Below, one piece after another: positions 13,601 through 31,610 of a stretch of DNA of 64,000 nucleotides. The first letter of the stretch is position 1. Each line of letters opens with the position of its first letter. A program made the position numbers and the translations under genes. The notes below the pieces were generated by a model. That model was not told the origin of the DNA. It worked only from the letters and a program-made list of their open reading frames with translations, and ran no database searches. The stretch is from Candidatus Uhrbacteria bacterium RIFCSPLOWO2_01_FULL_47_25 (lineage in GTDB: Bacteria > Patescibacteriota > Patescibacteriia > GWA2-46-9). The stretch is from positions 8,566 to 72,565 of the forward strand of contig MGEK01000004.1 in the NCBI GenBank assembly GCA_001791325.1, given 5' to 3'.

Positions 13601-16600
13601 TACTCTCGGAGGGGATATCCGAGTTTATGGCGATTTAGCATCAGTATCTGGCACCCTTTCTGACGCGACTGATAGCGTAACGGTAGTTGGTAGTGTTACT
13701 TGTTTTGCTGCGTTTGCGTGTGGAACCATTACATTTACGGGCGGCACTTTTACCCAGATCGTCGCTGCTAATCAGACTTTTGGCACGAATGCATCAGATA
13801 GTACTATAGATTGGACTTTTAATAACCTGACTTTTGATAGTTCTTCTGGATCAAACACTATTACTTTAGGTAATATAGGTTTGACTGGTACCGGTCAAAT
13901 TATTGTTAATGGAACATTAACAATTGGCACAGGGGGCACAATGACCACTCTGCAGGCTGATACCTATGACCGCATCATTGACGCGAACATCGTGACCATT
14001 ACCTCAAAAGGAATCTTGTTCGCCTCGTCTTCGGCGTTGTTCACCGTTGCCGGAGCATTTACTCATACTTCCGGCGGCACTTTCACTCACAGCAACGGCA
14101 TTGTCACATTTGACGGCACCGCGGCCTTGAATTTTGTAAATAATACAACGACTTTTTATGATGTGGTGGTTGCTACCGGGGTAACAAGAACAATTACCGC
14201 AGGAGCCAGCAATGTTCTTACTATAGCCAATACTCTGACAATTAATGGAACAGGAAGAATGGTCTCATTTTCTTCCGAACAATTGTATCTTACAAAAAAT
14301 GGTGAAACGCCGCTCATTGTGGGCGGGGCAACAGCAGTGAATGGACTAACCCTTGTTGTATATAGGCCAGCTGGCACGGCCACTAACGTCGCCGCCACGA
14401 CTTATAATTACCTCTATATATTACCGACCGCGGCGACGACATTAACCCTTCTCGGCGCAACCACAGTCAACGTCAACCTTTTAGTGACAGGTCCTGGTGC
14501 CGGTATAGTTGCCACTCTGGACACGAATGGCCAAACCCTCAATGTCGTCGGCGCTGTCGTCGCCGGTTTTGGTACACCGGGTGCTGTTATTATAGGCGCG
14601 AGCACAGTGGATGTGGACGGGGATGTATTAATTTGGGATGTTTCCGGAAGCTATATCAGCATGACTTCGGGCAGCTTGAATGTTGGCGGCAACTGGTCTA
14701 ATGGAGCGAATTCAGTCTTTACTGCCGGCACTGGCACCGTTACTTTTGACGCCGCGGACGCCGGTAACACCATCGCCACGGGCGGAACTGACAGTAACCA
14801 TGATTTTTACGATGTCATCTTTGATAATTCAGCCGGCTCTTGGATATTCCAGACAAACGACGTCTTAATCTCCAATAATTTAACCGTCACAAATACATCG
14901 GCCACAGGAGTTAACGCCTCGGTGAATGTGACGGTCAACGGCAGTGTTACTGGAGCGGGTGTAATTAACATTACTAATAGCGTGACCTTTACCCAAAAAG
15001 TGGCAGCCGTCAGTAAGACTTTCGGCACCACCTCTGGTGCCAATGATTGGACATTTTATAACTTAGCCTTTGAAAACTCCTCGGGACCCCGGACCATTGA
15101 TACTAATGGAGGGTCGGGACAAATTATCGTTTCCAATACCCTAACTATTGGTAATGCCGATGATTCCACGGTGACCACTCTTGACAACAACACTACTAAT
15201 GACCGCATCATTGACGCGAACATCGTGACTATTACCTCTAAAGGAAGCTTGACCGCTTCTTCCTCGGCTTTATTCACCATTGCCGGCGATTTCACCAATA
15301 ACGGCACCTTCACGCATAGTAGCGGCACAGTTACTTTTGACGGCGCGAGCGCCAACATTAACATACCAGACGCGGGCATAACATTTTATAAGGTTATTAT
15401 TGATATCAGTAGCCCCAATGCTAAAACCTTAGTGAACGGTGCCACGATTGCCGTGATGACTGTGGCTAACACCCTCACCGTTAATGGCACTGGCGCCTTG
15501 ACTTCCGGAGGAGGCAATGAACAGGTTAAGCTCACCAAAGACGGCGATACCGGAGGAGTGCCTTTAACGGTTGGCGGTGCCACAGCCGTTTCGGGGGTGG
15601 CCGCTTTTATTTACGCTCCGGCCGGCGCCGCCACCACGGTTACCGGAACTACTTACAGCTCTCTTACTATTAACCCTACTGCGGCTACCACGTTGACGTT
15701 AGGCGAGGCTGTCATAACAAGTGGCGCTTTGTATGTCTTTGGTCCCAATAGCACTACCGCCGCCACTCTAAATACAAATAACTACGACCTGACAGTTGGT
15801 GGAGCCTTGTTTGTCGGTGCATGGTATTTGGGTTATGCCGATGGAGTGGTTAATTTGGGAAGCAGTACGGTTACGGTGAGTGGGGACGTTTGGATAATGC
15901 AAGATACGGGATCCGAACTTGATGCCGGCTCATCTACCCTGACGGTTGGCGGAAACTGGGTTTGGTTTTCCGCCTTTAGCTCCGGCGGTATTTTTACGGC
16001 GGGCACGAGTACCGTCAAATTTAATGCCGGTGATGCAGGGAATACCATTGATGCCGGCGCCGGCGCGTTTAACAACGTTATATTTGACAACGCCGCCGGC
16101 TCCTGGACGTTTCAGACCACGGCGGCGACAATTTCTGGAGATCTCACCATGACCGCGGCCACGCAGGTTAACGCTTCGGTTAATGTTACAGTGAACGGCA
16201 ATGTATCGTGCGGTGTGACATGCGGAACGATTAATATCACAAACGCTGTTACGTTTACCCAATCCGTTGACGCGGCTAAGAATTTTGGCACCAGCGTTGT
16301 CGATGACGCAACAGTCTGGACATTTAGCAGTCTGACCTTTACAGCCACTACAGATACCATAACTACTAGCTCCAATGGCACCGGCAATATAAATGTTACT
16401 GGCACCTTAACTATTTCCGGCTCAACTACTCTGGATGCCGGCGATCGTAATTGGGTTCTATCCGGCGCTGGCACGCCCTTCGCGCGAACCGGAACTTTCA
16501 CCGGAAACACATCCACTTTTAATTATACTTCAACCACCGGAGTTGACGCCCTTTCCTCGGCCGCCATGACCGGTTCTAATGCCTACTACAATCTCACTAT

Positions 16601-19600
16601 CAACTCTTCCGGCGACACCTTCACGGCTGGTGTGGCTGTTGCGGCTACTAACAAAGTGCTCGTAACCGCCGGTATCCTTGCCATGGGTGCCAATGCTTTG
16701 ACCGCAGGCTCCACAGGTGTCACTGACTCTGGCCAAATTAGTGTGGCTTCCGGTCATTCTCTAACCTCAAGTGGCACCGTCACCATCGTTAGCTCGGCCG
16801 CAAGTACAGCGAGTTGCCTTGGCGGAACAACCCTGCCGGGGTGCACTGGCGCAGTGGGCACACTCACTTTATCCACTCTTGTTATCGGTGACGGAGCCAC
16901 CACCATGACCACGGCTTTTGGTGGTACCACTCCGAGCATGGCCATTTCTACGCTTCTCAATATCACTACGAACGCCACCTTCACCGCCGGTACGGGAAGT
17001 ACTATTACTTTGTCAGCGGCTGGCACTCCCATTACTCGAGACGGGAACTTCAGATGCGGTACAAGCACGGTTGCTTATACTTCCTCCACCGGAGTTGACG
17101 CCCTGTCTTCGGCCGCCATGACCGGTGACTGCACAACCGGAAACGCCTTCTACAACCTAGTTATAAACGGTACAAACAATTTTCCCGTTACTAACGATAT
17201 TATTGTTACTAATAATTTAACCGTGACGGCAGGGTCACTTACTGGTACAAGCAATGTAACCGCCAACAGTAATGTTGCCTGTGGCGTTACTTGCGGCTCG
17301 ATTACTTTGACCGGCGGCACGTTTCTCCAATCAGTAGGGGATGCCAAAAATTTTGGCACAAATGTAGACGAAGACGATACTTGGACATTTAACAATCTTA
17401 CTTTTACAGCCACCACAGATACCATAACCACGAGTTCCAATGGTACTGGCAACATAAATGTTACTGGCGACTTAACTATTTCCGGCTCAACCACTCTGGA
17501 CGCAGGAGACAGAACATTCGTTTTGTCAGGTAGTTCCGGCTCGCCGTTCGTGAAAACAGGCACTTTCACTTACAATACTTCCACGATTAAATATACTGGT
17601 ACGACAGTAACGGTATTATCTATGACCGGCACCGGTGGTAGTGATGGGTACTATAATCTCACGGTGGACGGCACCGGGCCATTTAACGCCGGCGGAGCAA
17701 TTGTAGCAAATAACGATGTCACGGTAACGTCCGGCACACTGGCTATGGGGGCGAACGCCCTCACAGTGAACGGCGGCGACATCTCGGTCAGCGGTATCTT
17801 CTCGCAAACCGCGGGCAGCGCCACCACAGTTGTCACTACTGGCTCCATTGGAGGCGCGGGTACTACGACCTTTGGCGAGCTTAACATTGGCACTGGTTCA
17901 AGTGACCAAACTACTACGGCTGGCGGCGACTTCACTGTCTCCGGCGTTCTGACCACTGTCTCATCTTCCAGCACCAACAATTTTGACGCTTCTTCTAAGA
18001 CCATCACCCTCTCGGGCACAGGCACGCCGTTTGTGAATAACGAGACGTTTACTTATGGGACTTCCACTATAAAATACACTGGCAGTGATACCACCACAGT
18101 TCTTGCGATGACTGGCACCGGTGGGACAAATGGATATTATAAATTGATAACTCAAGGCACAGGTCCGTTTAACGCTGGCGGAAGTATCACAGCCAACAAC
18201 AATATCAACATTACGAGCGGCACTTTTGCCGTTGGCGGAAACACCTTAATTGGTGCCAATATCACTGTTGACGGCGGTTCGTTGTCGGCAACAACGAGCG
18301 GCGGAAAAATTAAAATTTCCGGCGGCGGAGATTTGTCCGTCACGAGCGGAAGCATTGTTACGGCTGATGTGGCGACCCCGGTTGAAATCACAAGTTCTGA
18401 TACCGCTACGCCAACCTATGTTGGCGTGAGCGTTACTGGCGCTTCCAGTACAATAAATATCCCCGAATTGGATATTGATTATTTAAAGAGCACGGGATTT
18501 GTCGTTGGCGCGAGCGTTACCGTCACGGCCATGGATAAGGTGAGATGGGGCGGGAGCGGTGGAACATGGAATGGACAGGCGGCGGTGGGCGAAGTGCTGT
18601 TAGACGCCACGAGTTTAACTAAGACGCTTGATGGTCATGTTTTTCCAAATACATGGGCGAGCCAAGGCGGTTCTGATTGCAACGTCAGAGCGAATACTGA
18701 TGGTACTGTCACCATGACAAATTTTTCCGGAACATATAGTGGCGAAGACTATGATTGCGATAATGGCGGTACGGTAACATGGGTCAGCGGGCTCTCGATA
18801 GCCGGCACGGTTTATACTGACGAAGGGTCAACTCGTATGACCACTGGACCGACCGTGCGCGTAAAAGTTGATGGAGCAGGGGACTTCAGTGATGTGGCAG
18901 ATACTACCAATTGCCCGGGGAGTAGCCCCTGCGGTGAATACCTTATCACAGGTGTCACTCCTACGGACAGCGGAGCAGTGCTTACGATTTATCTTGATGA
19001 TGAAACAGAGAATGCCACCACTGTCACCATATCGAGCGGCTTGGATTTAACGGGCATAGACCTTTACCAAAATCGTGTCATCGTGCGATACGAAACCGGC
19101 AGCAGTATTACTAATACCAATTTAGACCAATATGACTGGGTTAACGAAGGTGATGCGAATATTGATGGAGACATTGGTTTCCAGGTGACAGCCGGCGCTT
19201 TGACAGTCTCTAAAGACAGAGAACTCCACATCTGGACAGGCAAGACTTTCACGCCGGGCGGAAGCGTTACCACAAATACCGGAGGCAGTGGAGTTGGTGG
19301 AGACGTCCATATTGTGGGAATTTTTACAGCCACGACTACCGAGAGTCATTCGGTCGGCGGCTCCTGGACTGATACTGGCACGTTCAATCCCGCCAGCTCA
19401 ACGGTCACGTTTGCCGCCACCTCTGGCACGAAAACCATCACTTCAACCGGCTCGTCATTTTATAATTTGATTATCAACGGTTCGGGCGGCGAGTTTCAGC
19501 CACAAGACGCCATGGTTGTTACAAACGACCTTACTATAACCGCGGGCACGCTGTCGGGAACGCAAAACGTGACGGTTAACGGCCATGCTGTAGGTACCGC

Positions 19601-21356
19601 CGGAATAATCAGTCTTACGGGGGGCACATTTGAGCAGCGAGTAATCGCTAACAAAAATTTTGGTCCAACGACCGCCAGCACCAGCTGGACGTTTAGCACG
19701 CTCATTTTTTCTAACAGCAATGCTGGAGCCACGGAAATTATGATTTTTACTGAACCCTGTAGTACTTGCGGCGTGACCGTTAGCAGTATTCTTTATATTG
19801 GAAAATCTGGCGATGCGGTTGACGCGACAACTACTCTAAATGCTGAAGACAAAATTTGGACACTATCGGGCACGGGCGGCGATCCTTTCCAGATTTTGGC
19901 CTCACCAGCGGGCGATTTAGCGCCAGCTGCTGCCACTTTTGTTTACACTGGCAATAACGAGGCGGGTAATACCACAGTGCAGTCCGAAACCTACATTGGG
20001 TTAGAGTTTAACAACGGTTCAGAAATATATGCCTTGGAAGGGGAAACTAGTGGCAGCACGACAGTGACAATTACTGCCGGCACTTTGAATCTTAATGGAC
20101 AAACATTAACTTCTAACGGCAATCTCATTGTCAATGGTACGTTGTCAGGAGCAACTGATGTTATGGTGAATGGCAATGTTACTGGCAGTGGCATAGTAAC
20201 CTTGACCGGCGGTACGTTTGAGCAGGTTGTGTTTACCGACAAAACGTTTGGCTCAAGCTCTGGTACGAATACGTGGACTTTTAGTGGTTTGAAATTTAAT
20301 AACTCTAGCGGTGCGGCTGGCCGCACGATTACGCCAAACGCCGGTACGGGCGATGTAGTGGTTTCTGGAACACTGACGCTTGGCGACAGCGGAACGCAGA
20401 TAATTACCTTTAATAATGATACTAATGATAGAGTCTTTGACTTGAATGGCGCGATTCTTATATCAACCCAAGGCTCCTTTACTGCTTCAAATAGTGTCGC
20501 GTTCTCTGTAGCAAGTAATTTTACCAATAACGGCGCCTTTGCCCATTCCAGCGGTACCGTGACATTTGACACGACAGGCATAAGCATTCTCGCTGGCACC
20601 GGTTCGCCCGCCATAACTTTTTTCAATTTCACTTCAACCACGGCCGGAAAAACAATCAATTTTACAGCCGGACAAACTTTTAGAATAAACGGCAAATTGA
20701 CTATTTTGGGCGCTGACCTAAATCCGGTTAATCTTCATTCAACTTCATCTCCGACGCTATGGACAATAAATCATCAAGGAACAGAAAGCGTGCAATACGC
20801 CGATATAGACGATAGCGCTTGCGACGGTAGTAGCAACATCAGTCTTGATAGCACGTCCACCGGCACTAACGATGGGACTTGTTGGCTTTTCCCGAGTTTG
20901 TCTTTCACCATCAGTCCGACAAGCGTTAGTCTTAATTTAACATCCCCGACTTTTACTACGACGGCCACTAATACATTGACCGTGACCGCGCGAGCTGAAT
21001 TTGGCTATACTTTGACTGCGTATGAAACTGGCGTGCTAACACATACGGCATATCCGAGCAAGACCATAGATGATTGGACTGGCATCCATCCAACTGGTTC
21101 GGCTTGGTCAAGTACTTGTATCGCGGCAAGTGAATGCGGTTTTGGTTATAATACGAGCGACGCTGATATTGGCATGAGTACTAATTATTCCGCTTTTGCC
21201 GGTTTATTAGACGCGCCCGGCGACGCCGTGGCGAGTTCCTCGGGACCAGTCACTGGCGAGGCCACCACCATCACCTACCGCTCTTCAGTTAGCGCCATTC
21301 AAGCCGCTGGGCCATATCAGACGACCATTATATATATAGTGACGCCACAGTTCTAG
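7686..21356 (+). CDS. giant (4556 aa) cell-surface protein: basic N-terminus plus signal-anchor TM, acidic linker, Ig-like domains, long Thr/Gly-rich parallel beta-helix-type repeats, WxL-like C-terminal domain (likely ATG start at 7695)
   Basis: Single uninterrupted ORF. TM GVIGTVVVVLFISSLF; repeated DFTWGVLVVN.../DYTWGVLAFN... domains; many repeats of ...TFTxxGTxTxSGTVTFDG...; C-terminus shares W...GFGY...AGxYxxTIxYIxTPxF with ORF 23614..24882. Confidence 0.8.
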   Translation: MVKMSKLLGAKKRKNPAHHGRNKPVARGQRQETRAKKRLKERVLGVIQRQVKLRELKVLARRGVIGTVVVVLFISSLFVRAEPNPLLVHEVIYPQSCRGTWQGMNNIFTQELDARAEADDFNKTNSAMPALGEPTVAAVPGKEEYNAFTVSLPILDQQSNVDTLMDQPSDTDQDLQLIIPPIIPSQEESPVENAPSQNTPIEDNDNNSENKSLENAPSEQVLGEEDKADDSSQPVTDEQLSTEKSNEEQEQPLSPPSQPQPQEPLDTQLFPEPETKPLAPPDDTLPMPTEPPATEPSGAEPSSTDQPIINFNNLLDKLINKALAEEDAILNTDTNASTADTNGAETKVDSNSEADGFSVEDIVKSVAEKIGDIVSDSADKVSEIIAPITAEPVDIQNLTPGTPSLETKPEAEDSPSLLGTLFDAVGQAISAITDLISPLPPSVLEAPSFAIQDSNILKTENGTMACADFTPPATTQIEQASLGLSYTLKDQSPLPNEQSGFLWAEYTQDRQNWMILSSIEDTNSSVESAYHLFNFPPDFDAGRISETIVRLRWFGKYDEPEIFIDSLWLDVARLGDSEQEKPSELKTAKKDFAAFEDPVFNLSFDPQVPLSAKRGVIFDNSQSQSIIEKYKERYKQWLESWANFIIQKPLSFARNALAQSPSADQATPNDAALWHETNLDISARLLTKDYGPTDIVPELLRLNSGQFKISLAARAFRPGAYILQTTIQKGESVQTLEQDFTWGVLVVNTDQSVYKTGDEASFFFGVLNDKGETACDATLEAKITDPAGQAVTLATADGTIKSSSSCAKNSVTDTPDYGATYHTTTAGTYALAVTATTVEGSHTITDTFSAQDDLPYRVRRRGASRIYPLAKYEMSIEVTARNDFKGTVTERVPLDFIVTPSSNFVITAVEDAQALTWDVALQAGESQNFTYEYNAPDISPAIFHLGEFSLTASGADQPIFIEPNQWEIASDGLDPVIIHAPEVALRPEVRGKAERLAREVPLPENVPHHTRSMEGNFESRKMNRPVSLALAREQVPPNAKISVVDAYGKEITDGIVVNTEEDTMTVDINPDAKGMRPGKYTLYVTDPDTEEVLAEQDYTWGVLAFNPDYAVYPPNTTANLSFGVLDDAGRVLCDAALVAIIADPSGNETVLGTGDGSIRVNEECYQMEDTQKPDYEANFDTTIPGIYQMTIIAKSKNGERTLNDSFSVDPNAAFYLKRTGPTRTYHPATYNYSLDFTAKEAGTYDITEKVPASFTITGDGFTVTEQDQTKILHWQVTAVAGETKTLAYRFKGPPLSPYLFLLGAAEVKTSSPNQTWVEPREWMLASDNACSSDVDPSGNWNTAGSWTSCGGVVPTTTDTVAIVDGDTITIDSAPNSVISVNINLGGTLNGGSATLNINNTAASGTSFTNSGTWTSSTGTVNFGSDVALTMLSGSFIGSNNFNNITHTFTPTAARTYTVGAAVEIGGNWTSTPGSTSNARDLTINLSGATTVTGTLTLDGRGCNNGAADGTASTTQFSTNGQNLTVRAIVVDGITNGDGCRFTTANSSVVTFTGTGTTTLFTLGQTGSTALMTTGTTTEWDVTSVSGTPTLFSTSGTTITVHILKIAASATIVNLGAAFTIDANSGNKLWINSGILNQENRTITAGASATLQIDSGGTLCLGGTTASTTANCASGATQATAQAMPSFTTYTFDAASTVSYLSNANVVFSSTPNYGNLTLNPVLISTNRTYTPGGAMTINGDFTINPNESFTDTPSLTVDPLNNYTVASGKTTTITKTNAATSVLILPLAVSQYLSTGKLVIASGGTLNGAISSATIIIKDTGAAFTNSGTYTYGLTKVSYTNTTSSTVLGMTGTSGTNGYYDLDINGTGGTHTLGANTTANNATTITAGTLNTSAASSFTLTTSTLSITGGLTANASFINITGAGAAFTKSGTFTYGTSTVEYTNATGATVLSMNNVGSTNAYYTIWVANGSHTLGGDIRVYGDLASVSGTLSDATDSVTVVGSVTCFAAFACGTITFTGGTFTQIVAANQTFGTNASDSTIDWTFNNLTFDSSSGSNTITLGNIGLTGTGQIIVNGTLTIGTGGTMTTLQADTYDRIIDANIVTITSKGILFASSSALFTVAGAFTHTSGGTFTHSNGIVTFDGTAALNFVNNTTTFYDVVVATGVTRTITAGASNVLTIANTLTINGTGRMVSFSSEQLYLTKNGETPLIVGGATAVNGLTLVVYRPAGTATNVAATTYNYLYILPTAATTLTLLGATTVNVNLLVTGPGAGIVATLDTNGQTLNVVGAVVAGFGTPGAVIIGASTVDVDGDVLIWDVSGSYISMTSGSLNVGGNWSNGANSVFTAGTGTVTFDAADAGNTIATGGTDSNHDFYDVIFDNSAGSWIFQTNDVLISNNLTVTNTSATGVNASVNVTVNGSVTGAGVINITNSVTFTQKVAAVSKTFGTTSGANDWTFYNLAFENSSGPRTIDTNGGSGQIIVSNTLTIGNADDSTVTTLDNNTTNDRIIDANIVTITSKGSLTASSSALFTIAGDFTNNGTFTHSSGTVTFDGASANINIPDAGITFYKVIIDISSPNAKTLVNGATIAVMTVANTLTVNGTGALTSGGGNEQVKLTKDGDTGGVPLTVGGATAVSGVAAFIYAPAGAATTVTGTTYSSLTINPTAATTLTLGEAVITSGALYVFGPNSTTAATLNTNNYDLTVGGALFVGAWYLGYADGVVNLGSSTVTVSGDVWIMQDTGSELDAGSSTLTVGGNWVWFSAFSSGGIFTAGTSTVKFNAGDAGNTIDAGAGAFNNVIFDNAAGSWTFQTTAATISGDLTMTAATQVNASVNVTVNGNVSCGVTCGTINITNAVTFTQSVDAAKNFGTSVVDDATVWTFSSLTFTATTDTITTSSNGTGNINVTGTLTISGSTTLDAGDRNWVLSGAGTPFARTGTFTGNTSTFNYTSTTGVDALSSAAMTGSNAYYNLTINSSGDTFTAGVAVAATNKVLVTAGILAMGANALTAGSTGVTDSGQISVASGHSLTSSGTVTIVSSAASTASCLGGTTLPGCTGAVGTLTLSTLVIGDGATTMTTAFGGTTPSMAISTLLNITTNATFTAGTGSTITLSAAGTPITRDGNFRCGTSTVAYTSSTGVDALSSAAMTGDCTTGNAFYNLVINGTNNFPVTNDIIVTNNLTVTAGSLTGTSNVTANSNVACGVTCGSITLTGGTFLQSVGDAKNFGTNVDEDDTWTFNNLTFTATTDTITTSSNGTGNINVTGDLTISGSTTLDAGDRTFVLSGSSGSPFVKTGTFTYNTSTIKYTGTTVTVLSMTGTGGSDGYYNLTVDGTGPFNAGGAIVANNDVTVTSGTLAMGANALTVNGGDISVSGIFSQTAGSATTVVTTGSIGGAGTTTFGELNIGTGSSDQTTTAGGDFTVSGVLTTVSSSSTNNFDASSKTITLSGTGTPFVNNETFTYGTSTIKYTGSDTTTVLAMTGTGGTNGYYKLITQGTGPFNAGGSITANNNINITSGTFAVGGNTLIGANITVDGGSLSATTSGGKIKISGGGDLSVTSGSIVTADVATPVEITSSDTATPTYVGVSVTGASSTINIPELDIDYLKSTGFVVGASVTVTAMDKVRWGGSGGTWNGQAAVGEVLLDATSLTKTLDGHVFPNTWASQGGSDCNVRANTDGTVTMTNFSGTYSGEDYDCDNGGTVTWVSGLSIAGTVYTDEGSTRMTTGPTVRVKVDGAGDFSDVADTTNCPGSSPCGEYLITGVTPTDSGAVLTIYLDDETENATTVTISSGLDLTGIDLYQNRVIVRYETGSSITNTNLDQYDWVNEGDANIDGDIGFQVTAGALTVSKDRELHIWTGKTFTPGGSVTTNTGGSGVGGDVHIVGIFTATTTESHSVGGSWTDTGTFNPASSTVTFAATSGTKTITSTGSSFYNLIINGSGGEFQPQDAMVVTNDLTITAGTLSGTQNVTVNGHAVGTAGIISLTGGTFEQRVIANKNFGPTTASTSWTFSTLIFSNSNAGATEIMIFTEPCSTCGVTVSSILYIGKSGDAVDATTTLNAEDKIWTLSGTGGDPFQILASPAGDLAPAAATFVYTGNNEAGNTTVQSETYIGLEFNNGSEIYALEGETSGSTTVTITAGTLNLNGQTLTSNGNLIVNGTLSGATDVMVNGNVTGSGIVTLTGGTFEQVVFTDKTFGSSSGTNTWTFSGLKFNNSSGAAGRTITPNAGTGDVVVSGTLTLGDSGTQIITFNNDTNDRVFDLNGAILISTQGSFTASNSVAFSVASNFTNNGAFAHSSGTVTFDTTGISILAGTGSPAITFFNFTSTTAGKTINFTAGQTFRINGKLTILGADLNPVNLHSTSSPTLWTINHQGTESVQYADIDDSACDGSSNISLDSTSTGTNDGTCWLFPSLSFTISPTSVSLNLTSPTFTTTATNTLTVTARAEFGYTLTAYETGVLTHTAYPSKTIDDWTGIHPTGSAWSSTCIAASECGFGYNTSDADIGMSTNYSAFAGLLDAPGDAVASSSGPVTGEATTITYRSSVSAIQAAGPYQTTIIYIVTPQF

Positions 21357-21360
21357 TGAA

Positions 21361-21516
21361 GAATATGGAATATTGAATATGGAATATAGGGATGTGCTGT
21401 GAAGAATATGGAATATTGAATATGGAATATAGGGATCGTTGATTTGAGAAAATTAATTGAAGAATATAAAATTTAGAATATAGGGATCGAACGGTGGAGA
21501 ATATTGAATATACATT
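21361..21516 (+). repeat. promoter-proximal block: (GAATATN)4 - 15 bp - (GAATATN)4 - spacer - GAATATAAAATTTAGAATATA - GGGATCGAACGGTGGAGAATATTGAATATACATT. It is near-identical to 26901..27056
   Basis: Direct comparison: 21389-21516 is identical to 26929-27056; the first heptamer arrays differ at 2 positions. Confidence 0.85.
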
Positions 21517-22953
21517 ATGAAAAGTGAGATTAAGTCATTTAGAGATTTGGTGGTATGGCAAAAAGCATCTGCTTTGGCAACTTTGCTGTATAAAGTTACG
21601 GAAAATTTTCCTAAAACAGAAATATATGGAATAACAAGTCAGATGCGACGGGCAGCGGTATCGGTTTCTTCTAATATTGCCGAGGGATTTAAAAGAAATT
21701 CAAAAAAAGAAAAAGTGCAGTTTTATTCAATGGCTTATGGGTCTCTTTCGGAATTGGAAAGTCAAATAGAAATTTCTTTTCGTCTGGAATATTTAACAAT
21801 TACTAACTACGATCAAATTTTATCCGCAATCAACGAAGTTTCTCGACTCCTAGACGGTATTATTAGGTCCACTAATAGAAATTATCAAAGTAGGTTTGAT
21901 GTTCTCGTTGCTGTATCTATATTCTATATTCTATATTCTATATTCCCAATCTCACCGGCTAATGCTGGTGAAATTGGTCTGGCTGTCACAAGAAACCGCT
22001 TTGATATTGAGATGCTCTCGGGCGACACATACAAGGGTGATTTAGCCGTGTATAATAAATCAGCAGACGCCGCCTTGCCTGTGCACGTGGAATTGGCGCT
22101 CTGGAACATTAAAGAGGATTCTGAAGATATTGAGTTTGTTCAAGCGGAGTCATTGCTTAATGCCACACGTTGGTTTGAGGTTCAGCCGAAAGATTTTATT
22201 TTAGACCAAGGCGGCGATAGGCAAATTAAGTTTGAGATCACGGCTCCCAAAGACGCTTCGCCCGGAGCGTACTTGGTAATGATGCGTTTTCAGGCGGTTT
22301 TGCCGGAACATTATTTTTTGAAAGAAGGTCCAAGATTTTTGCCCGAGATTGGCGTTTTGTTTTTCATCAATGTCAGAACACTGGCCATTGACAGCGCGGC
22401 AGAAAATAATCGCTTAAATATCGTTTCATTTGAACCCGAAGGGACGCATCGCTTAACTTTTATTGACCGTTACGTGGTAAGTCCTGCCAATGCTGGCGTA
22501 TTTGACGAAGCAGTAAAAAAATTAGTGGCTAAAATTGAAAATAAAAGCATCTATTATTTTAAAGCCTCCGGCTTTGTCGTTATTAAAAACTTGTTTGGCC
22601 AGACAGTGTCACTCATTAAAATTCCCGAAAAATTTTTACTTCCCAACCGTACTCGCAGCATCCCCATCACCGTTATCACACCACCAACGGAACAATCAAA
22701 ATCCAATATTCTATATTCCATATTCTATATTCTTCAACAACAAACATACCTCGGCCCCTACACCGCGACACTAACGCTCAACGTTCCATCAAGCAATGGG
22801 GGAGTAGAGCCAATTTCAGAATCAATCAATTTCTGGATTATCCCATGGAAGTTTTGGTCGGCCGTTATTATTATAGCGTTGTTAATCGCGTTCATTATAT
22901 TAAAATTGCGGCGTCGGCTTCGGCCGGCACTAAGTGCGCTGATCGGACGCTGA
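21517..22953 (+). CDS. four-helix-bundle (23S rRNA IVS protein / Avd-like) domain fused to TM segment, DUF916-like surface domain and C-terminal TM anchor
   Basis: N-terminus FRDLVVWQKA...FPKTEIYGITSQMRRAAVSVSSNIAEGFKRNS matches the TIGR02436/PF05635 signature. Downstream WFEVQPKDF...VPKDASPGAYLVMMRF and the terminal hydrophobic helix + RRRLR resemble CscA/DUF916 proteins. Confidence 0.7.
   Translation: MKSEIKSFRDLVVWQKASALATLLYKVTENFPKTEIYGITSQMRRAAVSVSSNIAEGFKRNSKKEKVQFYSMAYGSLSELESQIEISFRLEYLTITNYDQILSAINEVSRLLDGIIRSTNRNYQSRFDVLVAVSIFYILYSIFPISPANAGEIGLAVTRNRFDIEMLSGDTYKGDLAVYNKSADAALPVHVELALWNIKEDSEDIEFVQAESLLNATRWFEVQPKDFILDQGGDRQIKFEITAPKDASPGAYLVMMRFQAVLPEHYFLKEGPRFLPEIGVLFFINVRTLAIDSAAENNRLNIVSFEPEGTHRLTFIDRYVVSPANAGVFDEAVKKLVAKIENKSIYYFKASGFVVIKNLFGQTVSLIKIPEKFLLPNRTRSIPITVITPPTEQSKSNILYSIFYILQQQTYLGPYTATLTLNVPSSNGGVEPISESINFWIIPWKFWSAVIIIALLIAFIILKLRRRLRPALSALIGR
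21918..21945 (+). repeat. (TATATTC)4 heptamer array inside the CDS at the 4HB/TM junction (inverted relative to the upstream GAATATN arrays)
   Basis: Read directly; encodes IFYILYSIF. Confidence 0.85.
22705..22732 (+). repeat. second (NATATTC)4 heptamer array inside the same CDS, just before the C-terminal TM anchor
   Basis: AATATTC TATATTC CATATTC TATATTC. Confidence 0.8.
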
Positions 22954-23030
22954 ATATGTGGAACGCTGAATTTACGCTGATAACGACGCTGATCGGACGC
23001 TGAATATGTGGAACGCTGATATTTACGCCG
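22936..23030 (+). repeat. array of about 8 ACGCTGA/ACGCCGA heptamer units (two 45-bp direct repeats) overlapping the last codons of the preceding CDS and ending 1 bp before the GxxExxY start
   Basis: GCGCTGATCGG ACGCTGAATATGTGGA ACGCTGAATTT ACGCTGATAACG ACGCTGATCGG ACGCTGAATATGTGGA ACGCTGATATTT ACGCCGAATGG. Confidence 0.85.
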
Positions 23031-23031
23031 A

Positions 23032-23463
23032 ATGGATATGAACAAGGTTAAGGATTTCTTGTATGAAAAGGAGTCGTATCAGATTAGAGGAGCGTGTTTT
23101 GATGTTTATAAAGCATTTGGTGGAGCATTTAAGGAAAAAATAGTGGATCGGGCGCTTACTAAATCTCTGGCTAAACGCGGATTAAAAGTGGACGAACAAA
23201 AACGTATAAACATTTTGTATGATGGTGAAAAAATTGGTACCTATATTCCCGACAAAATCGTAAATGATGCTATTATTTTAGAAGTGAAGGCAAAAAGTTT
23301 TATCACCAAAGATGATATAGATCAATTTTGGAAATATTTGAAAGGGTCAGACTATAAATTAGGATTCCTTGTAAATTTCGGTCCGGCAAAATTAGAAATA
23401 AAAAGAGTGGTATATGATTCAGCCAGACCAGTTCGGCGTGTTTCGGCGTCCTTATCGGCGTGA
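23032..23463 (+). CDS. GxxExxY family protein (PD-(D/E)XK nuclease-like)
   Basis: YEKESYQIRGACFDVYKAFGGAF...LEVKA...FLVNFGPAKLEIKRV: the family's diagnostic motifs. Confidence 0.75.
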   Translation: MDMNKVKDFLYEKESYQIRGACFDVYKAFGGAFKEKIVDRALTKSLAKRGLKVDEQKRINILYDGEKIGTYIPDKIVNDAIILEVKAKSFITKDDIDQFWKYLKGSDYKLGFLVNFGPAKLEIKRVVYDSARPVRRVSASLSA

Positions 23464-23506
23464 ATCAGCGTTTATATCAGCGTATTCATCAGCGTAAGTC
23501 GGCGGT
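23428..23506 (+). repeat. array of TCGGCGT x3 + TCAGCGT x3 + TCGGCGG (reverse complement of the upstream ACGCTGA/ACGCCGA array), overlapping the GxxExxY 3' end
   Basis: TTCGGCGTG TTTCGGCGTC CTTATCGGCGTG AATCAGCGT TTATATCAGCGT ATTCATCAGCGT AAGTCGGCGG. Confidence 0.85.
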
Positions 23507-23613: not shown

Positions 23614-24882
23614 ATGGTCAAAAAACTACGCAAATATCAACGATTTACAGTAGTTTACGTTTTAATTTTTTCAATAATAACTTTCTTTTCGGGCGCGCAT
23701 ATTTGGGGGCTGTTGCCGCCAGCTCGTGCGGCTGCTCTCACCAGTGTGAAAGACGTGCTCTCGACGTCAGAGTCGGGCGCCAACGCGAACCATACAATTC
23801 AGTTCGTAACTCCTTCAGGAGTACTACTCTCAACCCATACAGTGACACTCACATTTGACGGCTCACCATTGTTTGACGTTAGCGGCCTTGATGAAGATGA
23901 TGTGGATATGAGCGAAGACACTACGGGTGATATTGGCGATTGTGGCTCATTTGCTACGGCTAAGACCACTATAGCTGGAGCACCTGACGGCACCAACTGG
24001 GGTGTTACTTTCTCCGGTCAGACCATTGTATTCACACATCCTTCTGGTGATGATAACCAAGACATTGCCGCCGGTGCGTGTGTTCAGATAAGGATCGGCG
24101 ATGGTACTGTGGCTATGGACTCAGGCACGGGCGATGCTCAGATTAATAATCCGGCTGGTAACGGCGATGGTGTGGCTGAAATTGAAACAATTGACATTGC
24201 CACCGATAGCACCGTAGACGACAGCGGCACAGCTATGACCGCCACCGTAGAGGGTGTGGCCGTGAGTGTTACTGTTGATGAAAGTTTAGCCTTCTCTATA
24301 GCGGTCGTAACATCCGGTAACTGTACAGAAGGCGGAGGCGGGACCGCGGTTACCACGACAGCAACAACCGTGCCGTTTGATAGTATCGCGCTTGCCGTGA
24401 ACACTTTTTATAGAGGTTGCCATGATTTGACGGTGAGCACTAATGCGGCAAACGGCTATACCACAACTGTCGAAGAAAATAAAAGTTTAATTCGCACCGG
24501 TACTGATGGGGGCGACAAGACAATCAATGATGCTATTTGTGATGCGGGTGACGACTGTACCTCGGCCATTGGTGCTGGGACGACGTCGCCTTGGGCCACG
24601 GCCACTGCCAATCACGGTTTTGGCTATACATGCAGTGGCAGCGCTTGTGACGCTGCTTTCGCTACAGCTGCTGAATTTAATGCCTTTCCTTGCCGTAGTT
24701 CAACAGCGTCAGATTGTGATCCTGTTGATGGACCACTGGCTCTGGCTACCCCGATTTCGTCAGGAGGAGTTCCCGTCAGTGCTCAAACTTCAAGAATTGT
24801 ATACAAGCTTTCGTTTTCCGCCACTCAACCGGCTGGAACTTACGGTAACACTATTACCTATATAACAACCCCGACATTTTAG
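23614..24882 (+). CDS. secreted surface protein with WxL-like C-terminal domain (CscB/CscC-like)
   Basis: Signal peptide/TM at N-terminus; C-terminal ~100 aa align with the giant protein's C-terminus (HGFGY...AGTYGNTITYITTPTF vs CGFGY...AGPYQTTIIYIVTPQF). Confidence 0.55.
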   Translation: MVKKLRKYQRFTVVYVLIFSIITFFSGAHIWGLLPPARAAALTSVKDVLSTSESGANANHTIQFVTPSGVLLSTHTVTLTFDGSPLFDVSGLDEDDVDMSEDTTGDIGDCGSFATAKTTIAGAPDGTNWGVTFSGQTIVFTHPSGDDNQDIAAGACVQIRIGDGTVAMDSGTGDAQINNPAGNGDGVAEIETIDIATDSTVDDSGTAMTATVEGVAVSVTVDESLAFSIAVVTSGNCTEGGGGTAVTTTATTVPFDSIALAVNTFYRGCHDLTVSTNAANGYTTTVEENKSLIRTGTDGGDKTINDAICDAGDDCTSAIGAGTTSPWATATANHGFGYTCSGSACDAAFATAAEFNAFPCRSSTASDCDPVDGPLALATPISSGGVPVSAQTSRIVYKLSFSATQPAGTYGNTITYITTPTF

Positions 24883-24959: not shown

Positions 24960-25904
24960 ATGAAAATTCGCTACTCGCCATCATCCTTTATTGCTTTTTT
25001 AGTCGGTGGATTAACGGTGGGCGTGATCATGTCGCCAACCGCAGTGATGGCGCAAGCAGTAAAAACTCTCACTATCTCACCCCTCACTTTTGAACTAACC
25101 GCCAATGCGGGCGAGACTATATCTAATGTCTTAAAGATATATAACAATAACGATTTTAATATATCAGCCAACATTGATGTTGAAGATTTTGCTCCGGCCG
25201 GAGAGACCGGTCAAGCAGTGGTTACCGAACCGCAGGAGGATAATACCTATTCTTTGGCTCGTTGGATTACGGTTGAGGAAGAAACATTTGAAATAGAGGC
25301 ACAAAATTTTCGGCCGATTACTTTTCATGTTAACGTTCCCCTGAACGCCGAGCCGGGAGGGCACTACGGAACAGTACTTGCTTCTATCGCCGATGGTGGT
25401 GGCGAGGGCGGAGTTAGCGTGGCATCTAAAGTAGGCGCGCTTTTACTGCTTCAGGTGGCTGGTACGGCTAAAGAGTCTCTAAACGTCGCCAGTATGGGAG
25501 CGCCGAATTTTTCCGAATACGGGCCCGTAACCATTGCCACGAGATTCCAAAATACTGGCACTGTCCATTTAAAGCCGCGGGGGTTTATTTTAGTGCAAAA
25601 TATGTTTGGCCAAGAAACAGCCAAATTAAATTTAGACCAGAAAAATGTGTTGCCTAACTCGGTGCGTAGGATAGAATCAAAATTAGACGAGAAATGGCTA
25701 TGGGGTAAATATACGGCGACCTTGACGGCGATTTACGGTTCAACCAATGAGCCACTTTCTTACACCACAACTTTTTGGGTGATCCCTTGGCGGGTGAGTT
25801 TGGCTGTCGGCCTCATACTATTGATCGTTTTCATTATTCTTTATCGGGCTCGTCGGCGGATATTTTTGGCGCTCAAAATTCTCTTAAAGGGTGAACATAG
25901 TTGA
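24960..25904 (+). CDS. DUF916/DUF3324-like cell-surface protein with C-terminal membrane anchor (CscA-like)
   Basis: Signal peptide; WITVEEETFEIEAQNFRPITFHVNVPLNAEPGGHYGTVLAS; C-terminal TM LAVGLILLIVFIILY + RARRR. Paralogous to the C-terminal half of 21517..22953. Confidence 0.55.
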   Translation: MKIRYSPSSFIAFLVGGLTVGVIMSPTAVMAQAVKTLTISPLTFELTANAGETISNVLKIYNNNDFNISANIDVEDFAPAGETGQAVVTEPQEDNTYSLARWITVEEETFEIEAQNFRPITFHVNVPLNAEPGGHYGTVLASIADGGGEGGVSVASKVGALLLLQVAGTAKESLNVASMGAPNFSEYGPVTIATRFQNTGTVHLKPRGFILVQNMFGQETAKLNLDQKNVLPNSVRRIESKLDEKWLWGKYTATLTAIYGSTNEPLSYTTTFWVIPWRVSLAVGLILLIVFIILYRARRRIFLALKILLKGEHS

Positions 25905-25974
25905 AGAATATAGAATACAGAATCTAGAATAGAGAACTTGGAACATGGAATTTAAAACATGGAATTTAAAACAC
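25905..25974 (+). repeat. ten tandem 7-bp units (AGAATAT AGAATAC AGAATCT AGAATAG AGAACTT GGAACAT GGAATTT AAAACAT GGAATTT AAAACAC) between the CscA-like gene and the dockerin gene. The dockerin gene start codon lies within the array
   Basis: Strict 7-bp periodicity read directly. Confidence 0.8.
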
Positions 25975-26900: not shown

Positions 26901-27056
26901 GAATATGGAATATAGAATATTGAATATAGGGATGTGCTGTGAAGAATATGGAATATTGAATATGGAATATAGGGATCGTTGATTTGAGAAAATTAATTGA
27001 AGAATATAAAATTTAGAATATAGGGATCGAACGGTGGAGAATATTGAATATACATT
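26901..27056 (+). repeat. second copy of the promoter-proximal block (heptamer arrays + 128 bp identical to 21389-21516)
   Basis: Direct comparison with 21361-21516. Confidence 0.85.
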
Positions 27057-28595
27057 ATGAAAAGTGAAATTAAGTCATTTCGAGATTTGATAGTTTGGCA
27101 AAAATCTTCCAATTTAGCAACTTTAATATATGGCATTACTAACGATTTTCCCAAGAGCGAAATGTATGGTTTGACCAGTCAAATGCGCCGAGCTGTTGTA
27201 TCAGTTTCATCTAACATTGCAGAAGGCTTCAAACGAAACTCTAGAAAGGAGAAGGTACAATTCTACACAATGGCCTATGGTTCTCTTTCAGAATTAGAAA
27301 GCCAGATTGATATTTCAAAAAATCTTCACTATTTATTGGAAAGCCAATACCAAACAATAATTGAGGCAATTAACGAGGCGTCAAGGCTTTTGGACGGTAT
27401 TATTAGAGCCACTAACAGAACTCACAACGATCGTTTTTTTTCGCCTGCCATCTCTGTACTACTTGCCGTTGCGATCTCTGTATTCTATATTCAATATTCT
27501 ATATTCCCAACAGCGCCTGCCGGCGCTGTTTCGTCCGTGCGGCTTTTTTTTATTCCGGAAAATTCCGAGGTCGTTGCCGGTGATATTATAAAAAGTGACA
27601 TTTGGGTAGACACGCAGGGAAATACTATCAATGCGGTGGATATTAGTGTTTCTTATGATTCAATGGTTGAGCTTTTAAGCGCGGAGAAAAATGATTCAAT
27701 TTTGAATTTATGGGTTGAGGAACCGAGCTTTTCCGATACTACGCGCCGCGCTAAATTTACCGGCGGCCGTACTGGCGGGTTTGAGGGTCGGGGAATAATT
27801 GGGCAGTTGTATTGGAGAAATGAAAACGCCGGGGGAAAAGCAACTTTAGGCTTTGATGAGTCGTCTGTTGTTTTATTAAATGATGGATTGGGTACTCCAG
27901 CGGAGCTAGAGAGACGACAATCGGATTATAATATATTGGCCAAGGGAGAGGGTTTATTGAATTTATCTTCGGCCTCGCACCCGGATGAAAATAAATGGTA
28001 TAATCAGCCGTTTGTGCGTTTAAGTTGGCCGACAATAGAAGGCGCGATTTACAGCTATTTAGTTACGAGGGATCCGGCTCAACTACCAGATGACACGTTG
28101 GACGAGCCAGTAGGCAATATTAAGCTAAGCGACCTGACGGACGGCGTATATTATTTTAAGCTTAAACAAAAAAAACTCGGCGAAGAAGGGTGGTCCAGTG
28201 TTGTTTCCAGACAAATTAAAATTGACAAAACGCCGCCGGAATTTATTGAGGCAAAGATTTCACGTGATTCGGAACTTGTTCAAAATAAGTATTTCGCGAG
28301 CTTTGCCGCTAACGACAAGGCATCTATAGCTCGTTATGAAATAATTGAAGGGGATAGCGCTCCGGAGCCGATATTGCAGCCGCCATTTATTTTAAAAAAT
28401 CAAGATAGAAGCGTGGCCGTTACAATTAGAGCCATTGACGCGGCCGGTAATTACAAGGACATAATTATACCGGCCCTGACTTGGTGGCAAAGGCCGTCAA
28501 TTATTTTATATGTGAAAATAGGGCTTATTGTCGGGCTAGCTCTAATTGCAGCGGTGATAATAATTGTGATTATCAGGAGAAAAAAATCAATATAA
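27057..28595 (+). CDS. four-helix-bundle (Avd/23S-IVS-like) domain fused to TM, cohesin-like domain, Ig-like domains and C-terminal TM anchor
   Basis: N-terminus FRDLIVWQKSSNLATLIYGITNDFPKSEMYGLTSQMRRAVVSVSSNIAEGFKRNS. Cohesin-like INAVDISVSYDSMVELLSAE...LWVEEPSFSD. (TATATTC)4 at 27479-27506. Terminal TM + RRKKSI. Confidence 0.65.
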   Translation: MKSEIKSFRDLIVWQKSSNLATLIYGITNDFPKSEMYGLTSQMRRAVVSVSSNIAEGFKRNSRKEKVQFYTMAYGSLSELESQIDISKNLHYLLESQYQTIIEAINEASRLLDGIIRATNRTHNDRFFSPAISVLLAVAISVFYIQYSIFPTAPAGAVSSVRLFFIPENSEVVAGDIIKSDIWVDTQGNTINAVDISVSYDSMVELLSAEKNDSILNLWVEEPSFSDTTRRAKFTGGRTGGFEGRGIIGQLYWRNENAGGKATLGFDESSVVLLNDGLGTPAELERRQSDYNILAKGEGLLNLSSASHPDENKWYNQPFVRLSWPTIEGAIYSYLVTRDPAQLPDDTLDEPVGNIKLSDLTDGVYYFKLKQKKLGEEGWSSVVSRQIKIDKTPPEFIEAKISRDSELVQNKYFASFAANDKASIARYEIIEGDSAPEPILQPPFILKNQDRSVAVTIRAIDAAGNYKDIIIPALTWWQRPSIILYVKIGLIVGLALIAAVIIIVIIRRKKSI

Positions 28596-31527: not shown

Positions 31528-31578
31528 GTCGTAAGATGTCAGATAGTAGTTAGGAGTGTTTGTAATTAATATCAACCA

Positions 31579-31610
31579 GAAACTATCATACTATATAGTA
31601 TGATAGTTTC
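31579..31610. repeat. perfect 32-bp palindrome GAAACTATCATACTAT|ATAGTATGATAGTTTC, with an imperfect second copy at 51294-51325
   Basis: Checked base by base. Confidence 0.75.

Follow-up and report, generated by a model that had tools for sequence, protein, structure and literature searches.

The question raised by this locus is why short tandem repeats should border one protein-coding module so exactly, and whether they belong to the host genes or to the module itself. The locus lies in a 64,000-nucleotide stretch of DNA from Candidatus Uhrbacteria bacterium RIFCSPLOWO2_01_FULL_47_25 (contig MGEK01000004.1, positions 8,566 to 72,565), hereafter called the window. Here a segment encoding a four-helix-bundle (4HB) domain is fused to surface-protein genes and is bordered by arrays of a GAATATN heptamer upstream and of the reverse-complementary TATATTC downstream. 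An earlier reading made from the letters alone (the sequence-only reading) had drawn attention to these arrays and had suggested the ends of a mobile or invertible cassette, or the operators of a regulator. We find that the arrays are very probably the ends of a 4HB cassette of the intervening sequence (IVS) type that doubles as the 5′ leader module of surface-protein genes. The fuller account, in which an array-ended, swappable cassette supplies a translated leader, sets the reading frame by slippage and may form a stem, is on balance the one we favour.

Array-bounded 4HB cassettes in the window

The sequence GAATATNGAATAT occurs 28 times in the window, always between 21361 and 30225, compared with 0.01 occurrences in dinucleotide shuffles. 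Tandem Repeats Finder recovers arrays identical to those seen by inspection, and the array positions given by the sequence-only reading hold throughout. The first cassette, on the forward strand, opens with two perfect (GAATATN)4 arrays (21361–21388 and 21404–21431), each followed by AGGGAT. The inner part of its 5′ region (21444–21511) contains a promoter-like site, a degenerate third copy of the array (21462–21483), a GGAG sequence and a partial array, GAATATTGAATAT (21499–21511), that ends 5 nt before the ATG. The best promoter-like site, TTGAGA-17-TAAAAT at 21444–21472, is a consensus match only.

The 4HB coding region follows (amino acids 1–122, 21517–21882), and behind it lies a perfect (TATATTC)4 array (21918–21945) that is the reverse complement of the 5′ arrays and therefore reads on the opposite strand. 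All of this belongs to a single fused open reading frame (ORF) of 478 codons (21517–22953) that encodes the 4HB domain, an array-coded transmembrane segment or signal peptide, a surface domain and a C-terminal transmembrane segment. The stretches 21361–21389 and 21404–21432 are each 90% complementary over 29 nt to 21917–21945, and in minimum free energy folds the arrays pair with each other, with arms able to form a duplex of about 28 bp. The RNA of the whole region (21350–21960) folds no more stably than shuffled versions (z = −0.25), and the long-range stem between arrays is its only notable feature.

Two further cassettes of this kind reside downstream on the same strand. One (26901–27506) has 5′ arrays at 26901–26928, 26944–26971, 27002–27023 and 27039–27051, a 4HB start at 27057 and the 3′ array TGTATTC TATATTC AATATTC TATATTC in reverse orientation (27479–27506), and is fused to a 512-amino-acid surface protein (27057–28595). 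The other (30022–30225) is an internally deleted derivative upstream of a cohesin-type surface protein (ORF 30127–31527). Its gene has the ATG and only the first 16 codons of 4HB, and retains both array sets: 5′ arrays at 30022–30050, 30065–30085 and 30100–30120, and a perfect (TATATTC)4 in reverse orientation at 30198–30225, followed by PISPANAG/S (slashes here and below mark predicted leader boundaries). Folding of this deleted cassette gives a stem of about 30 bp (z = −4.1). Thus, the opposite-orientation array that the sequence-only reading placed after each 4HB segment is present at 21918, 27479 and 30198, and the 7-nt units stand in frame within three ORFs as well as in their upstream regions.

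The 4HB segments of genes 21517 and 27057 match PF05635 (23S_rRNA_IVP) over its full length (E = 1e-37; 128.9 bits with a cut-off of 33.8; profile positions 1–105 of 106) and TIGR02436 (E = 1e-34; 119 bits with a cut-off of 24). The nearest entry in the PDB is 2gsc, the pentameric protein XCC0516 (E = 8e-21). The two copies share 71% nucleotide identity, with a nonsynonymous divergence (dN) of 0.18 and a saturated synonymous divergence (dS), and are old paralogues under purifying selection. By contrast, 170 nt of the array region ahead of the gene, together with roughly the first twelve codons, show 100% identity between them, including the whole 5′ end of the first cassette (21361–21431). Because the flanks are identical while the dS of the ORF is saturated, the flanks must be undergoing homogenisation or replacement independently of the ORF that they border.

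Other assignments of the domain were considered. Distant homology links 4HB to Avd, the accessory protein of diversity-generating retroelements (PF22296, E = 3e-8; phrog_3206, E = 6e-14). We rejected this assignment because the score of 39.4 bits falls below the 80-bit equivalog cut-off of NF033474, and because neither a reverse transcriptase nor a template-repeat and variable-repeat pair is present in the 36 window ORFs scanned. Searches of Rfam return no RNA family, rRNA included, at E ≤ 1 between 20500 and 32500. The first cassette is flanked by protein-coding genes and so does not lie inside a 23S or 16S rRNA gene. The defence models of PADLOC match neither 4HB nor the GxxExxY protein described below.

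Array flanks across the 4HB and GxxExxY families

We fetched 80 loci encoding 4HB relatives, the best-scoring matches to a query from the candidate phyla radiation (CPR), from GTDB species genomes; 77 were usable for a test of their flanks. These loci come from Planctomycetota, Acidobacteriota, Bacteroidota, Firmicutes, Proteobacteria, Nitrospirota, several CPR classes and other groups. Each locus was scored by the best ungapped inverted match between the 250 nt upstream and the roughly 220 nt downstream of the gene, with a threshold of at least 13, and control windows of identical geometry were placed elsewhere within the same loci. Significant inverted flanks are present at 53 of the 77 4HB loci but in only 1 of 317 control windows (Mann–Whitney p = 3e-33), and 60 of the 77 have tandem arrays on both sides.

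The period of these flanks is 7 in about 70% of cases and 8 in about 20%, with a median of 4.0–4.3 units. The unit itself (6–8 nt) differs in nearly every genome, examples being AGTGACA, GTCAGTA, TCGGTTG, AGAGACGG, GCAGTGG, TAGGCAA and AGGGACT, while the upstream and downstream arms stay reverse-complementary. At several loci the inverted match reaches a few bases into the unique sequence inside the arrays. None of 79 4HB ORFs from GTDB extends more than 21 amino acids beyond the domain, and the arrays are thus non-coding in most bacteria. In addition, the G-rich arm is the 5′ arm on either strand at 64 loci, as opposed to 6. This polarity was set aside as evidence against inversion, since a unit flanked by inverted repeats looks alike from both strands.

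One member of this pattern was already in print. Rehm et al. (PMC4692102) list in a supplementary table a GGGAATC array of four units that lies across the start codon of XCC0516, and it is this gene that encodes the closest solved homologue of the window 4HB. Across phyla, and whatever its genomic setting, the 4HB gene family is marked by these arrays. Because stand-alone 4HB genes carry the arrays too, the repeats travel with 4HB, and the idea that they are a property of surface-protein genes is not supported.

The 4HB and GxxExxY families are the two families of small ORFs recorded inside 23S rRNA intervening sequences. Such 4HB ORFs in rRNA insertions have been documented (PMC4990558 and a preprint on CPR rRNA insertions, 10.1101/2024.02.27.582315). 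A GxxExxY gene adjoins the first fused ORF of the window and forms a cassette of its own on the forward strand (22937–23497; ORF 23032–23463, of the PDDEXK_3 type), with strong matches to TIGR04256 (102 bits, cut-off 35) and PF13366 (104.7 bits, cut-off 22). About eight ACGCTGA cores lie upstream (22937–23031) and about seven TCAGCGT or TCGGCGT cores lie downstream (23430–23497), the first three of them within the 3′ end of the ORF (…RRVSASLSA). The cores are spaced 10–16 nt apart and the spacers between them are not complementary.

This arrangement recurs in the GxxExxY family. At 27 of 65 distinct metagenome loci a hexamer is present three or more times upstream and its reverse complement three or more times downstream, where shuffled flanks reach a maximum of two copies; a further 19 of the 65 have at least two on each side. 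The spacing in these arrays is 10–12 nt, with a modal period of 11, and the cores are related (CGCTGA, CGCGGA, ACGGAT and ACGAAT). Viral contigs yielded no relatives of the GxxExxY protein. At one further locus (contig L013, 7274–8608), GxxExxY is fused to another surface protein, with ACGAAT cores upstream. Downstream of the domain this locus has copies in the same orientation first, translated as KPRIATNIKRIA, and inverted ATTCGT copies thereafter, translated as IIFVAISSLFVGIRG, a layout more complex than that in the window.

These observations bear on the proposal that the arrays are operators through which a host transcription factor co-regulates the surface-protein operon. Several arrays do occupy the promoter regions of three clustered genes, and another precedes a neighbouring dockerin gene, as such a proposal would predict. 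However, the association follows 4HB genes into unrelated contexts and phyla, half of the arrays lie inside coding sequence in reverse orientation, and the GxxExxY cassette next door in the same operon uses a different motif. We thus consider operators for a host regulator very unlikely.

Exchange, translation and slippage of the cassette ends

Related contigs reveal what happens at the edges of the cassette. Contigs L011 and L012, from sister populations, encode the same surface protein (81–85% identity) with a GxxExxY domain instead of 4HB. DNA homology with the window ends at 21355, which is the stop codon of the upstream 4556-amino-acid gene, and restarts at 21946/21948, right after the last TATATTC unit. 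Between these points, 592 nt of the window (21356–21947) correspond to 589 nt in L011 and L012, in which ACTAAT arrays precede the GxxExxY ORF and ATTAGT arrays, translated as SLVSISLLLVLISG, follow it.

In more distant relatives the orthologous site exists in several other states. It is empty in contigs L097 and L099, holds a fused 4HB in L014 and holds a 5′-truncated remnant in L013. In L098 the 4HB ORF is separate and shares an ATGA overlap with the next start codon; the unit is GTATATA, and the 3′ array lies within the signal peptide of the next gene. Contig L183 has (TTCAAAA)n arrays at a separate 4HB gene that belongs to another subfamily, and it keeps the old array-coded leader FYILNPIFF..LYSIFYILNP. 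The swap at array edges and these varied states bear out the suggestion that 4HB and its arrays behave as a discrete DNA module.

Contig L183 also contains, beside the orthologous surface-protein gene, a Y1_Tnp gene on the minus strand (1454–2225; IS200-like, PF01797, E = 1e-10) that has one copy of a hairpin-containing 33-nt repeat (GCAATATTTACGACATCGCAAGTCGTAAGATTA) on each side, both in the same orientation. This IS200- or RAYT-like unit is probably unrelated to the 4HB cassettes. We also considered a transposon with terminal inverted repeats, or a miniature element derived from one. The ends are indeed inverted, but inspection reveals no direct repeat at the borders and no transposase domain was found among the window ORFs scanned, and this candidate was rejected.

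An inverton, in which a site-specific invertase flips the segment between inverted repeats, was the architecture first suggested for this locus. In its favour, inverted repeats of 28–29 nt with 90% complementarity enclose about 530 nt that include a promoter-like site. Yet no recombinase, invertase, transposase or reverse transcriptase domain is present among the 36 window ORFs scanned, and flipping the segment would disrupt the in-frame fusion, which is kept in 68 protein clusters. In most phyla, flanks of this kind border ordinary ORFs that are fused to nothing. All 11 population contigs have the same orientation; because they were retrieved through an exact protein match, which biases this result, the lack of an inverted variant among them is weak evidence. 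Taken together, these points make an inverton barely credible. The heterogeneity at the arrays that the sequence-only reading proposed to look for does exist in the form of changed unit number (a loss of 14 nt in contig L182 and a gain of 58 nt in L001), although not as inversion.

The 3′ array is translated. TATATTC contains no stop codon in any frame and, because 7 is coprime to 3, reads as the cyclic peptide YILYSIF in all three. Translation of gene 21517 gives the junction …VLVAVS-IFYILYSIF-PISPANAG/EIGLAV, a hydrophobic core followed by an AxA site, which agrees with the earlier assignment of IFYILYSIF to the array. The segment PISPANAG (21946–21969, forward strand) would be the c-region of the leader, with a signal-peptidase site predicted by the −3/−1 rule at ANA/GE between 21966 and 21967. 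This c-region is native to the surface-protein family: the motif is common to orthologues with a GxxExxY cassette or with no cassette, and the cassette-free orthologue in L099 has the same site (VSPANA/ETIGIA).

Every one of the 68 4HB-fusion proteins recovered by homology has a leader feature soon after the 4HB domain. Most contain a hydrophobic 15-residue window (mean Kyte–Doolittle value 1.8–3.0) that starts at +1 to +22 and is followed by an AxA-like motif, and at least five carry the type IV prepilin motif G/F[TS]LIE. A recurrent junction peptide, KSYILN[SP]IFF..LYSIFYILNP, is the translated array region. The C-terminal parts vary (cohesin, Big_13, pilin and others), and every fusion for which the source names an organism comes from a CPR lineage, as do those of the window. 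Translation of the 3′ array appears to be particular to CPR bacteria.

Two pilin fusions, both in pilus operons, use other heptamers that are translated as a basic linker just before G/FTLIE: (CTAAAAC)n gives DLKPKTYNLKPNSG/FTLIE in contig L180, and (AAATACC)n gives SKIPNTKYHLPNTSSG/FTLIE in L181. The fusion partners thus seem, from their sequences, to be proteins that lose their N terminus to a leader peptidase. For this reason we infer that 4HB would be cleaved away, with no change to the mature protein. The CPR pilus operon of L180 (1–3800, with a PilC/T2SSF gene) also has a PDDEXK_3 ORF at its left end, and after the 4HB–pilin fusion (1501–3366) a short 4HB ORF (3370–3675) with arrays of opposite composition, (CCAAAT)n upstream and (GGATTTG)n downstream. 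A general rule in which stop codons make forward arrays insulate and reverse arrays open was dropped: the difference is weak (8.6 versus 6.0 stop triplets per 100 nt, p = 0.02), open-frame counts are similar, and the rule holds for the TATATTC unit only.

Since the unit is 7 nt long (1 mod 3), the reading frame is reset when units are lost or gained by slippage in the array, and a natural allele demonstrates this. The cluster of proteins at 90% identity to the 478-residue product includes a 346-residue member on contig L182 (ENA ERZ27254845, MEGAHIT k141), which matches the window over 600 nt except that 14 nt, two heptamers of the 3′ array, are missing. In this allele the 4HB ORF ends as a separate 143-residue protein, and the 346-residue surface protein starts at the ATG at 21899–21901 (+1 frame, forward strand) with an ordinary signal peptide, MFSLLYLYSIFPISPANAG/E. 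Slippage is therefore a property of the 3′ array in this population. Contig L001, the NCBI contig of a metagenome-assembled genome, has in addition a 58-nt duplication within the 5′ arrays of gene 27057 (window 26940–27021 compared with L001 15482–15563), with breakpoints in GAATAT units and a second copy of the promoter-like TTGAGA…TAAAAT site; this is either real population variation or an assembly difference.

We simulated changes in unit number for all three genes. With n = 1 mod 3 units the 4HB start is in frame with the surface protein; of the other two classes, one has no start codon, a predicted OFF state, and the other uses an alternative start. In gene 21517, 2 or 5 units would place the surface protein behind the internal ATG at 21899, and n = 0 mod 3 would leave it with no start codon.

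These results invite the reading that the arrays are mainly contingency loci of the host, working as a slipped-strand on/off switch as in NeuO, with the 4HB ORF as a passenger. A unit that is not a multiple of 3 does stand inside the reading frame of three surface-protein genes, the natural −14-nt allele shifts both start and frame, the +58-nt allele alters the promoter arrays of gene 27057, and the simulation yields an OFF state in all three genes. Moreover, cohesin, dockerin and Ig-like surface proteins, which a profile search identifies as the products of this gene cluster, are typical targets of phase variation. Against this, stand-alone 4HB genes in other phyla have the same inverted, non-coding arrays, and four units are few for a high-rate switch. 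At least 24 contigs have four units and one has two, with no OFF allele among them. We regard a primary role as host switches as doubtful, and return to arrays that are, first of all, the ends of a 4HB cassette.

Arrays also occur away from 4HB genes. The genome-specific flank heptamer recurs elsewhere within the 6-kb GTDB loci, with 26 arrays in 257 kb where about 0.2 would be expected, a figure calculated with uniform base composition. Several are convergent pairs without an ORF, 70–140 nt apart, that form long hairpins (z = −10.4 in locus L017). At locus L019 (480–720), a convergent AGTTGTC/GACAACT pair of this ORF-less kind stands right after an apparent tRNA 3′ end (…GGTTCGAGTC…CCA), 2.3 kb from the 4HB gene of that genome. 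In the window, only one orphan array and one intragenic array exist besides the cassette ends, and ORF-less pairs are absent.

The orphan array (25905–25974, forward strand) comprises about 10 degenerate units (AGAATAT AGAATAC AGAATCT … GGAATTT AAAACAT), as the sequence-only reading had noted. It fills the 54-nt gap before the dockerin gene and contains the dockerin ATG (25959). No 4HB accompanies this array, the signal-peptide codons contain no inverted partner for it, and it may be a solo end that remained after loss of a cassette.

The intragenic array, AATATTC TATATTC CATATTC TATATTC (22705–22732, reverse orientation), lies within the surface domain of gene 21517 and is translated as NILYSIFYIL. 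The sequence-only reading correctly located it but took it as bracketing the domain. It is not a cassette end: it is kept in the orthologue P0003, whose N-terminal cassette is GxxExxY, and it is no insertion relative to other orthologues. Because distant orthologues have an ordinary sequence of the same length at this position (NSIVYQFKKN), it looks like native codons converted into an array rather than an insertion. The label ‘DUF916-like’ given to the surrounding domain is weakly supported, as PF06030, the family formerly called DUF916, matches the paralogue at 24960–25904 below its cut-off (E = 0.003) and leaves gene 21517 itself unmatched.

The surroundings are those of an ordinary chromosome, with metK, dnaX, dnaB, recR, the gene for L21, tRNA synthetase genes and clpB in the window. 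Directly 5′ of the first cassette is a giant ORF (7686–21356, 4556 amino acids, TTG start) that ends in …IIYIVTPQF, and a 422-amino-acid ORF (23614–24882) ends in the same motif (…ITYITTPTF). Contig L004 lacks about 117 nt of the giant gene (window 20597–20713). Two near-perfect long palindromes, tatatacaaattgtgacgatcgtcacaatttgtatata upstream of the giant gene and gaaactatcatactatatagtatgatagtttc downstream of gene 30127–31527 (7380–7430 and 31578–31612), are candidate operator-like or terminator-like sites. At the start of the window, an 852-amino-acid ORF (358–2916) has an ATPase domain of the TrwB/VirD4 coupling-protein type (PF10412, E = 1e-9; PF02534).

How the cassette may work and what it resembles

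In the model that we favour, a cassette consists of one or more 5′ arrays, the 4HB ORF and a reverse-complementary 3′ array. The 5′ arrays fill the intergenic space and carry the best promoter-like site, and the ORF provides the start codon of the fused gene. The 3′ array, always read as YILYSIF in these cassettes, is translated as the hydrophobic core of a cleavable signal peptide. Because the ORF gives the start codon and the 3′ array encodes this core, 4HB would be made as an N-terminal cytoplasmic extension of the surface protein. Signal peptidase, or prepilin peptidase in the pilin fusions, would then cut 4HB off and leave a normal mature protein.

Slippage in the 3′ array would modulate this output, with a fusion at n = 1 mod 3, an internal-ATG signal peptide at n = 2 mod 3 in gene 21517, and an OFF state in that gene at n = 0 mod 3, where no start codon remains. 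At the RNA level, the array arms may pair into a stem of about 28 bp that RNase III could cut, by analogy with the Coxiella IVS. The arrays would act either through stem formation and RNase III cleavage or through binding by the protein of the cassette itself.

Several observations weigh against this account or against parts of it. The 80 4HB loci are best-scoring matches to a CPR query and do not form a random sample of the family. Movement of the cassette is something we infer; the window ORFs scanned include no transposase, and neither a target-site duplication nor any further trace of movement was found. The two-unit allele is known from one contig, compared with at least 24 that have four units, and a three-unit (OFF) allele was not seen. 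Mismatches between arms show no excess of G·U over A·C pairs (87 versus 125), and unit variants are confined to one arm in 271 cases but shared in 135, the shared ones being largely unique inner sequence beside the arrays. Because G·U pairs are not in excess and variants are mostly unmatched between arms, exact RNA pairing appears not to be visibly under selection. An RNase III cut in the 3′ arm would, moreover, fall inside signal-peptide codons, which would be hard to reconcile with expression of the surface protein. Finally, the period depends on which protein is encoded (7 nt with 4HB genes, about 11 nt with GxxExxY genes) and the GxxExxY spacers are not complementary, features that fit protein-binding sites better than a duplex. 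Duplex-energy z-scores do not separate 4HB from GxxExxY arrays and do not decide between RNA and DNA pairing.

These last points lead to the reading in which the arrays are recognition sites for the protein encoded by the cassette, forming a self-propagating system like REPIN–RAYT. A pentameric 4HB ring would bind four to five tandem heptamers, and the GxxExxY nuclease would bind cores spaced by about 11 nt. The protein-bearing copy would be the master, and ORF-less pairs and solitary arrays would be its non-autonomous offspring. The period is indeed specific to the protein family (7–8 versus 10–12 nt), the GxxExxY cores are conserved between variable, non-complementary spacers, and the median of about four units can be set beside the pentameric structure of XCC0516 (PMC4990558). 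Arrays of the same unit are dispersed in related loci, ORF-less hairpin pairs among them (26 arrays in 257 kb). Gene 30127 has lost the core of its ORF and kept both ends, like non-autonomous elements, and the 5′ flanks in the window are 100% identical despite the saturated dS of the ORFs. Dispersed heptamer arrays have also been published for Xanthomonas and Beggiatoaceae without a known cause (PMC4692102, PMC4679880).

On the other side, target-site duplications were not seen, and the 64-kb window has no ORF-less pairs and only the one orphan and the one intragenic array. We know of no nuclease or transposase chemistry in 4HB proteins, and of nucleic-acid binding among 4HB relatives only for the distant retroelement protein Avd. 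We judge self-propagation through recognition of its own arrays to be unlikely. A broader scheme is speculative, and we offer it with considerable doubt: 4HB and GxxExxY may be masters of a hitherto unrecognised, pan-bacterial class of array-bounded elements, of which the short tandemly repeated repetitive (STRR), GGGAATC and TAACTGA repeats would be non-autonomous copies. In this scheme the pentamer would read four to five heptamers, and CPR bacteria would have domesticated the cassettes as slippage-tunable leaders for surface proteins and pili, the terminal array of the element itself encoding the signal-peptide or prepilin leader.

The IVS-type cassette that we favour has its nearest counterpart in the 23S IVS of Leptospira, Coxiella and Brucella, which shares the ORF family (S23p, equivalent to PF05635) and complementary termini with the window cassette. 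A mobile or selfish nature has long been suspected for IVS elements. In the Coxiella IVS, the one member of the family studied experimentally and itself the carrier of a 4HB-family gene, RNase III cuts a terminal stem of 28 bp (PMC4990558), and 28 bp is the length of four heptamers. Unlike the 23S IVS, the window cassette lies outside rRNA, at the 5′ end of protein-coding genes, has termini made of tandem heptamers, has a translated 3′ end and has its ORF fused in frame to the host gene. Removal of the insert, if any, would occur at the protein level by leader peptidases, and the putative loss of the 4HB leader would be the counterpart of excision of the insert from rRNA by RNase III.

With REPIN–RAYT systems (PMC3337134) the cassette has in common a single gene between inverted short repeats. 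Dispersal of a lineage-specific repeat as ORF-less hairpin pairs, another trait of those systems, was seen in related loci, the window having one orphan and one intragenic array. It differs in that the flanked gene is of the PF05635 or PF13366 family and not an HUH/Y1 transposase (PF01797), and in that the repeats are tandem arrays of 6–8-nt (or about 11-nt) units and not single palindromes.

Comparison with NeuO is also instructive. In that system the number of units modulo 3 decides whether the protein is made. Phase variation by a heptanucleotide repeat in the 5′ coding region has been described for NeuO of E. coli K1 (PMC13001214). As there, 7-nt units stand within the 5′ end of the ORF and a natural length variant exists, here in the window population. 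In contrast, the repeat in the window is one arm of the inverted pair of an inserted cassette, the arrays are short (four units), and two frames out of three yield the surface protein, in one case fused to 4HB and in the other without it.

Genome-specific heptamers have been reported as GGGAATC in Xanthomonas, TAACTGA in Beggiatoaceae, cyanobacteria and Bacteroidetes, and STRR in cyanobacteria (PMC4692102, PMC4679880). Like the window arrays, these repeats have 2–6 units, often four, and the forward version often ends at a start codon; the reverse version is translatable and occasionally lies inside ORFs, and convergent pairs occur. What sets the window arrays apart is their link to 4HB genes, which is our main result. 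The main texts of PMC4692102 and of the MacGregor study of TAACTGA (PMC4679880) contain no term that names the 4HB family.

The 23S IVS with its S23p ORF and inverted termini, the excess of heptamers, NeuO phase variation and REPIN–RAYT were already known. Our literature searches, whose coverage is incomplete, found no prior link between 4HB or GxxExxY and heptamer arrays. As far as these searches reach, four results are new: the inverted tandem arrays, with a period particular to each family, that border 4HB and GxxExxY genes throughout their families; the exchange of cassettes precisely where the arrays end; the signal peptides and prepilin leaders, encoded by arrays, through which a cassette ORF is joined to CPR surface proteins; and a natural two-unit slippage allele that uncouples the fusion.

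The 4HB/23S-IVS family is widespread and has two crystal structures, but to our knowledge no function has been assigned to it, and we likewise know of no explanation for the excess of heptamer repeats in bacteria that has been noted since 2007. The present findings bear on both and make both open to concrete, cheap experiments. They also affect annotation, as whole surface proteins are currently named ‘four helix bundle protein’, and the prediction of secretion is affected likewise. In dozens of CPR surface proteins and pilins, the signal peptide or prepilin leader of the N-terminal module is specified by a repeat array, which suggests how bacteria with very small genomes might vary their surface.

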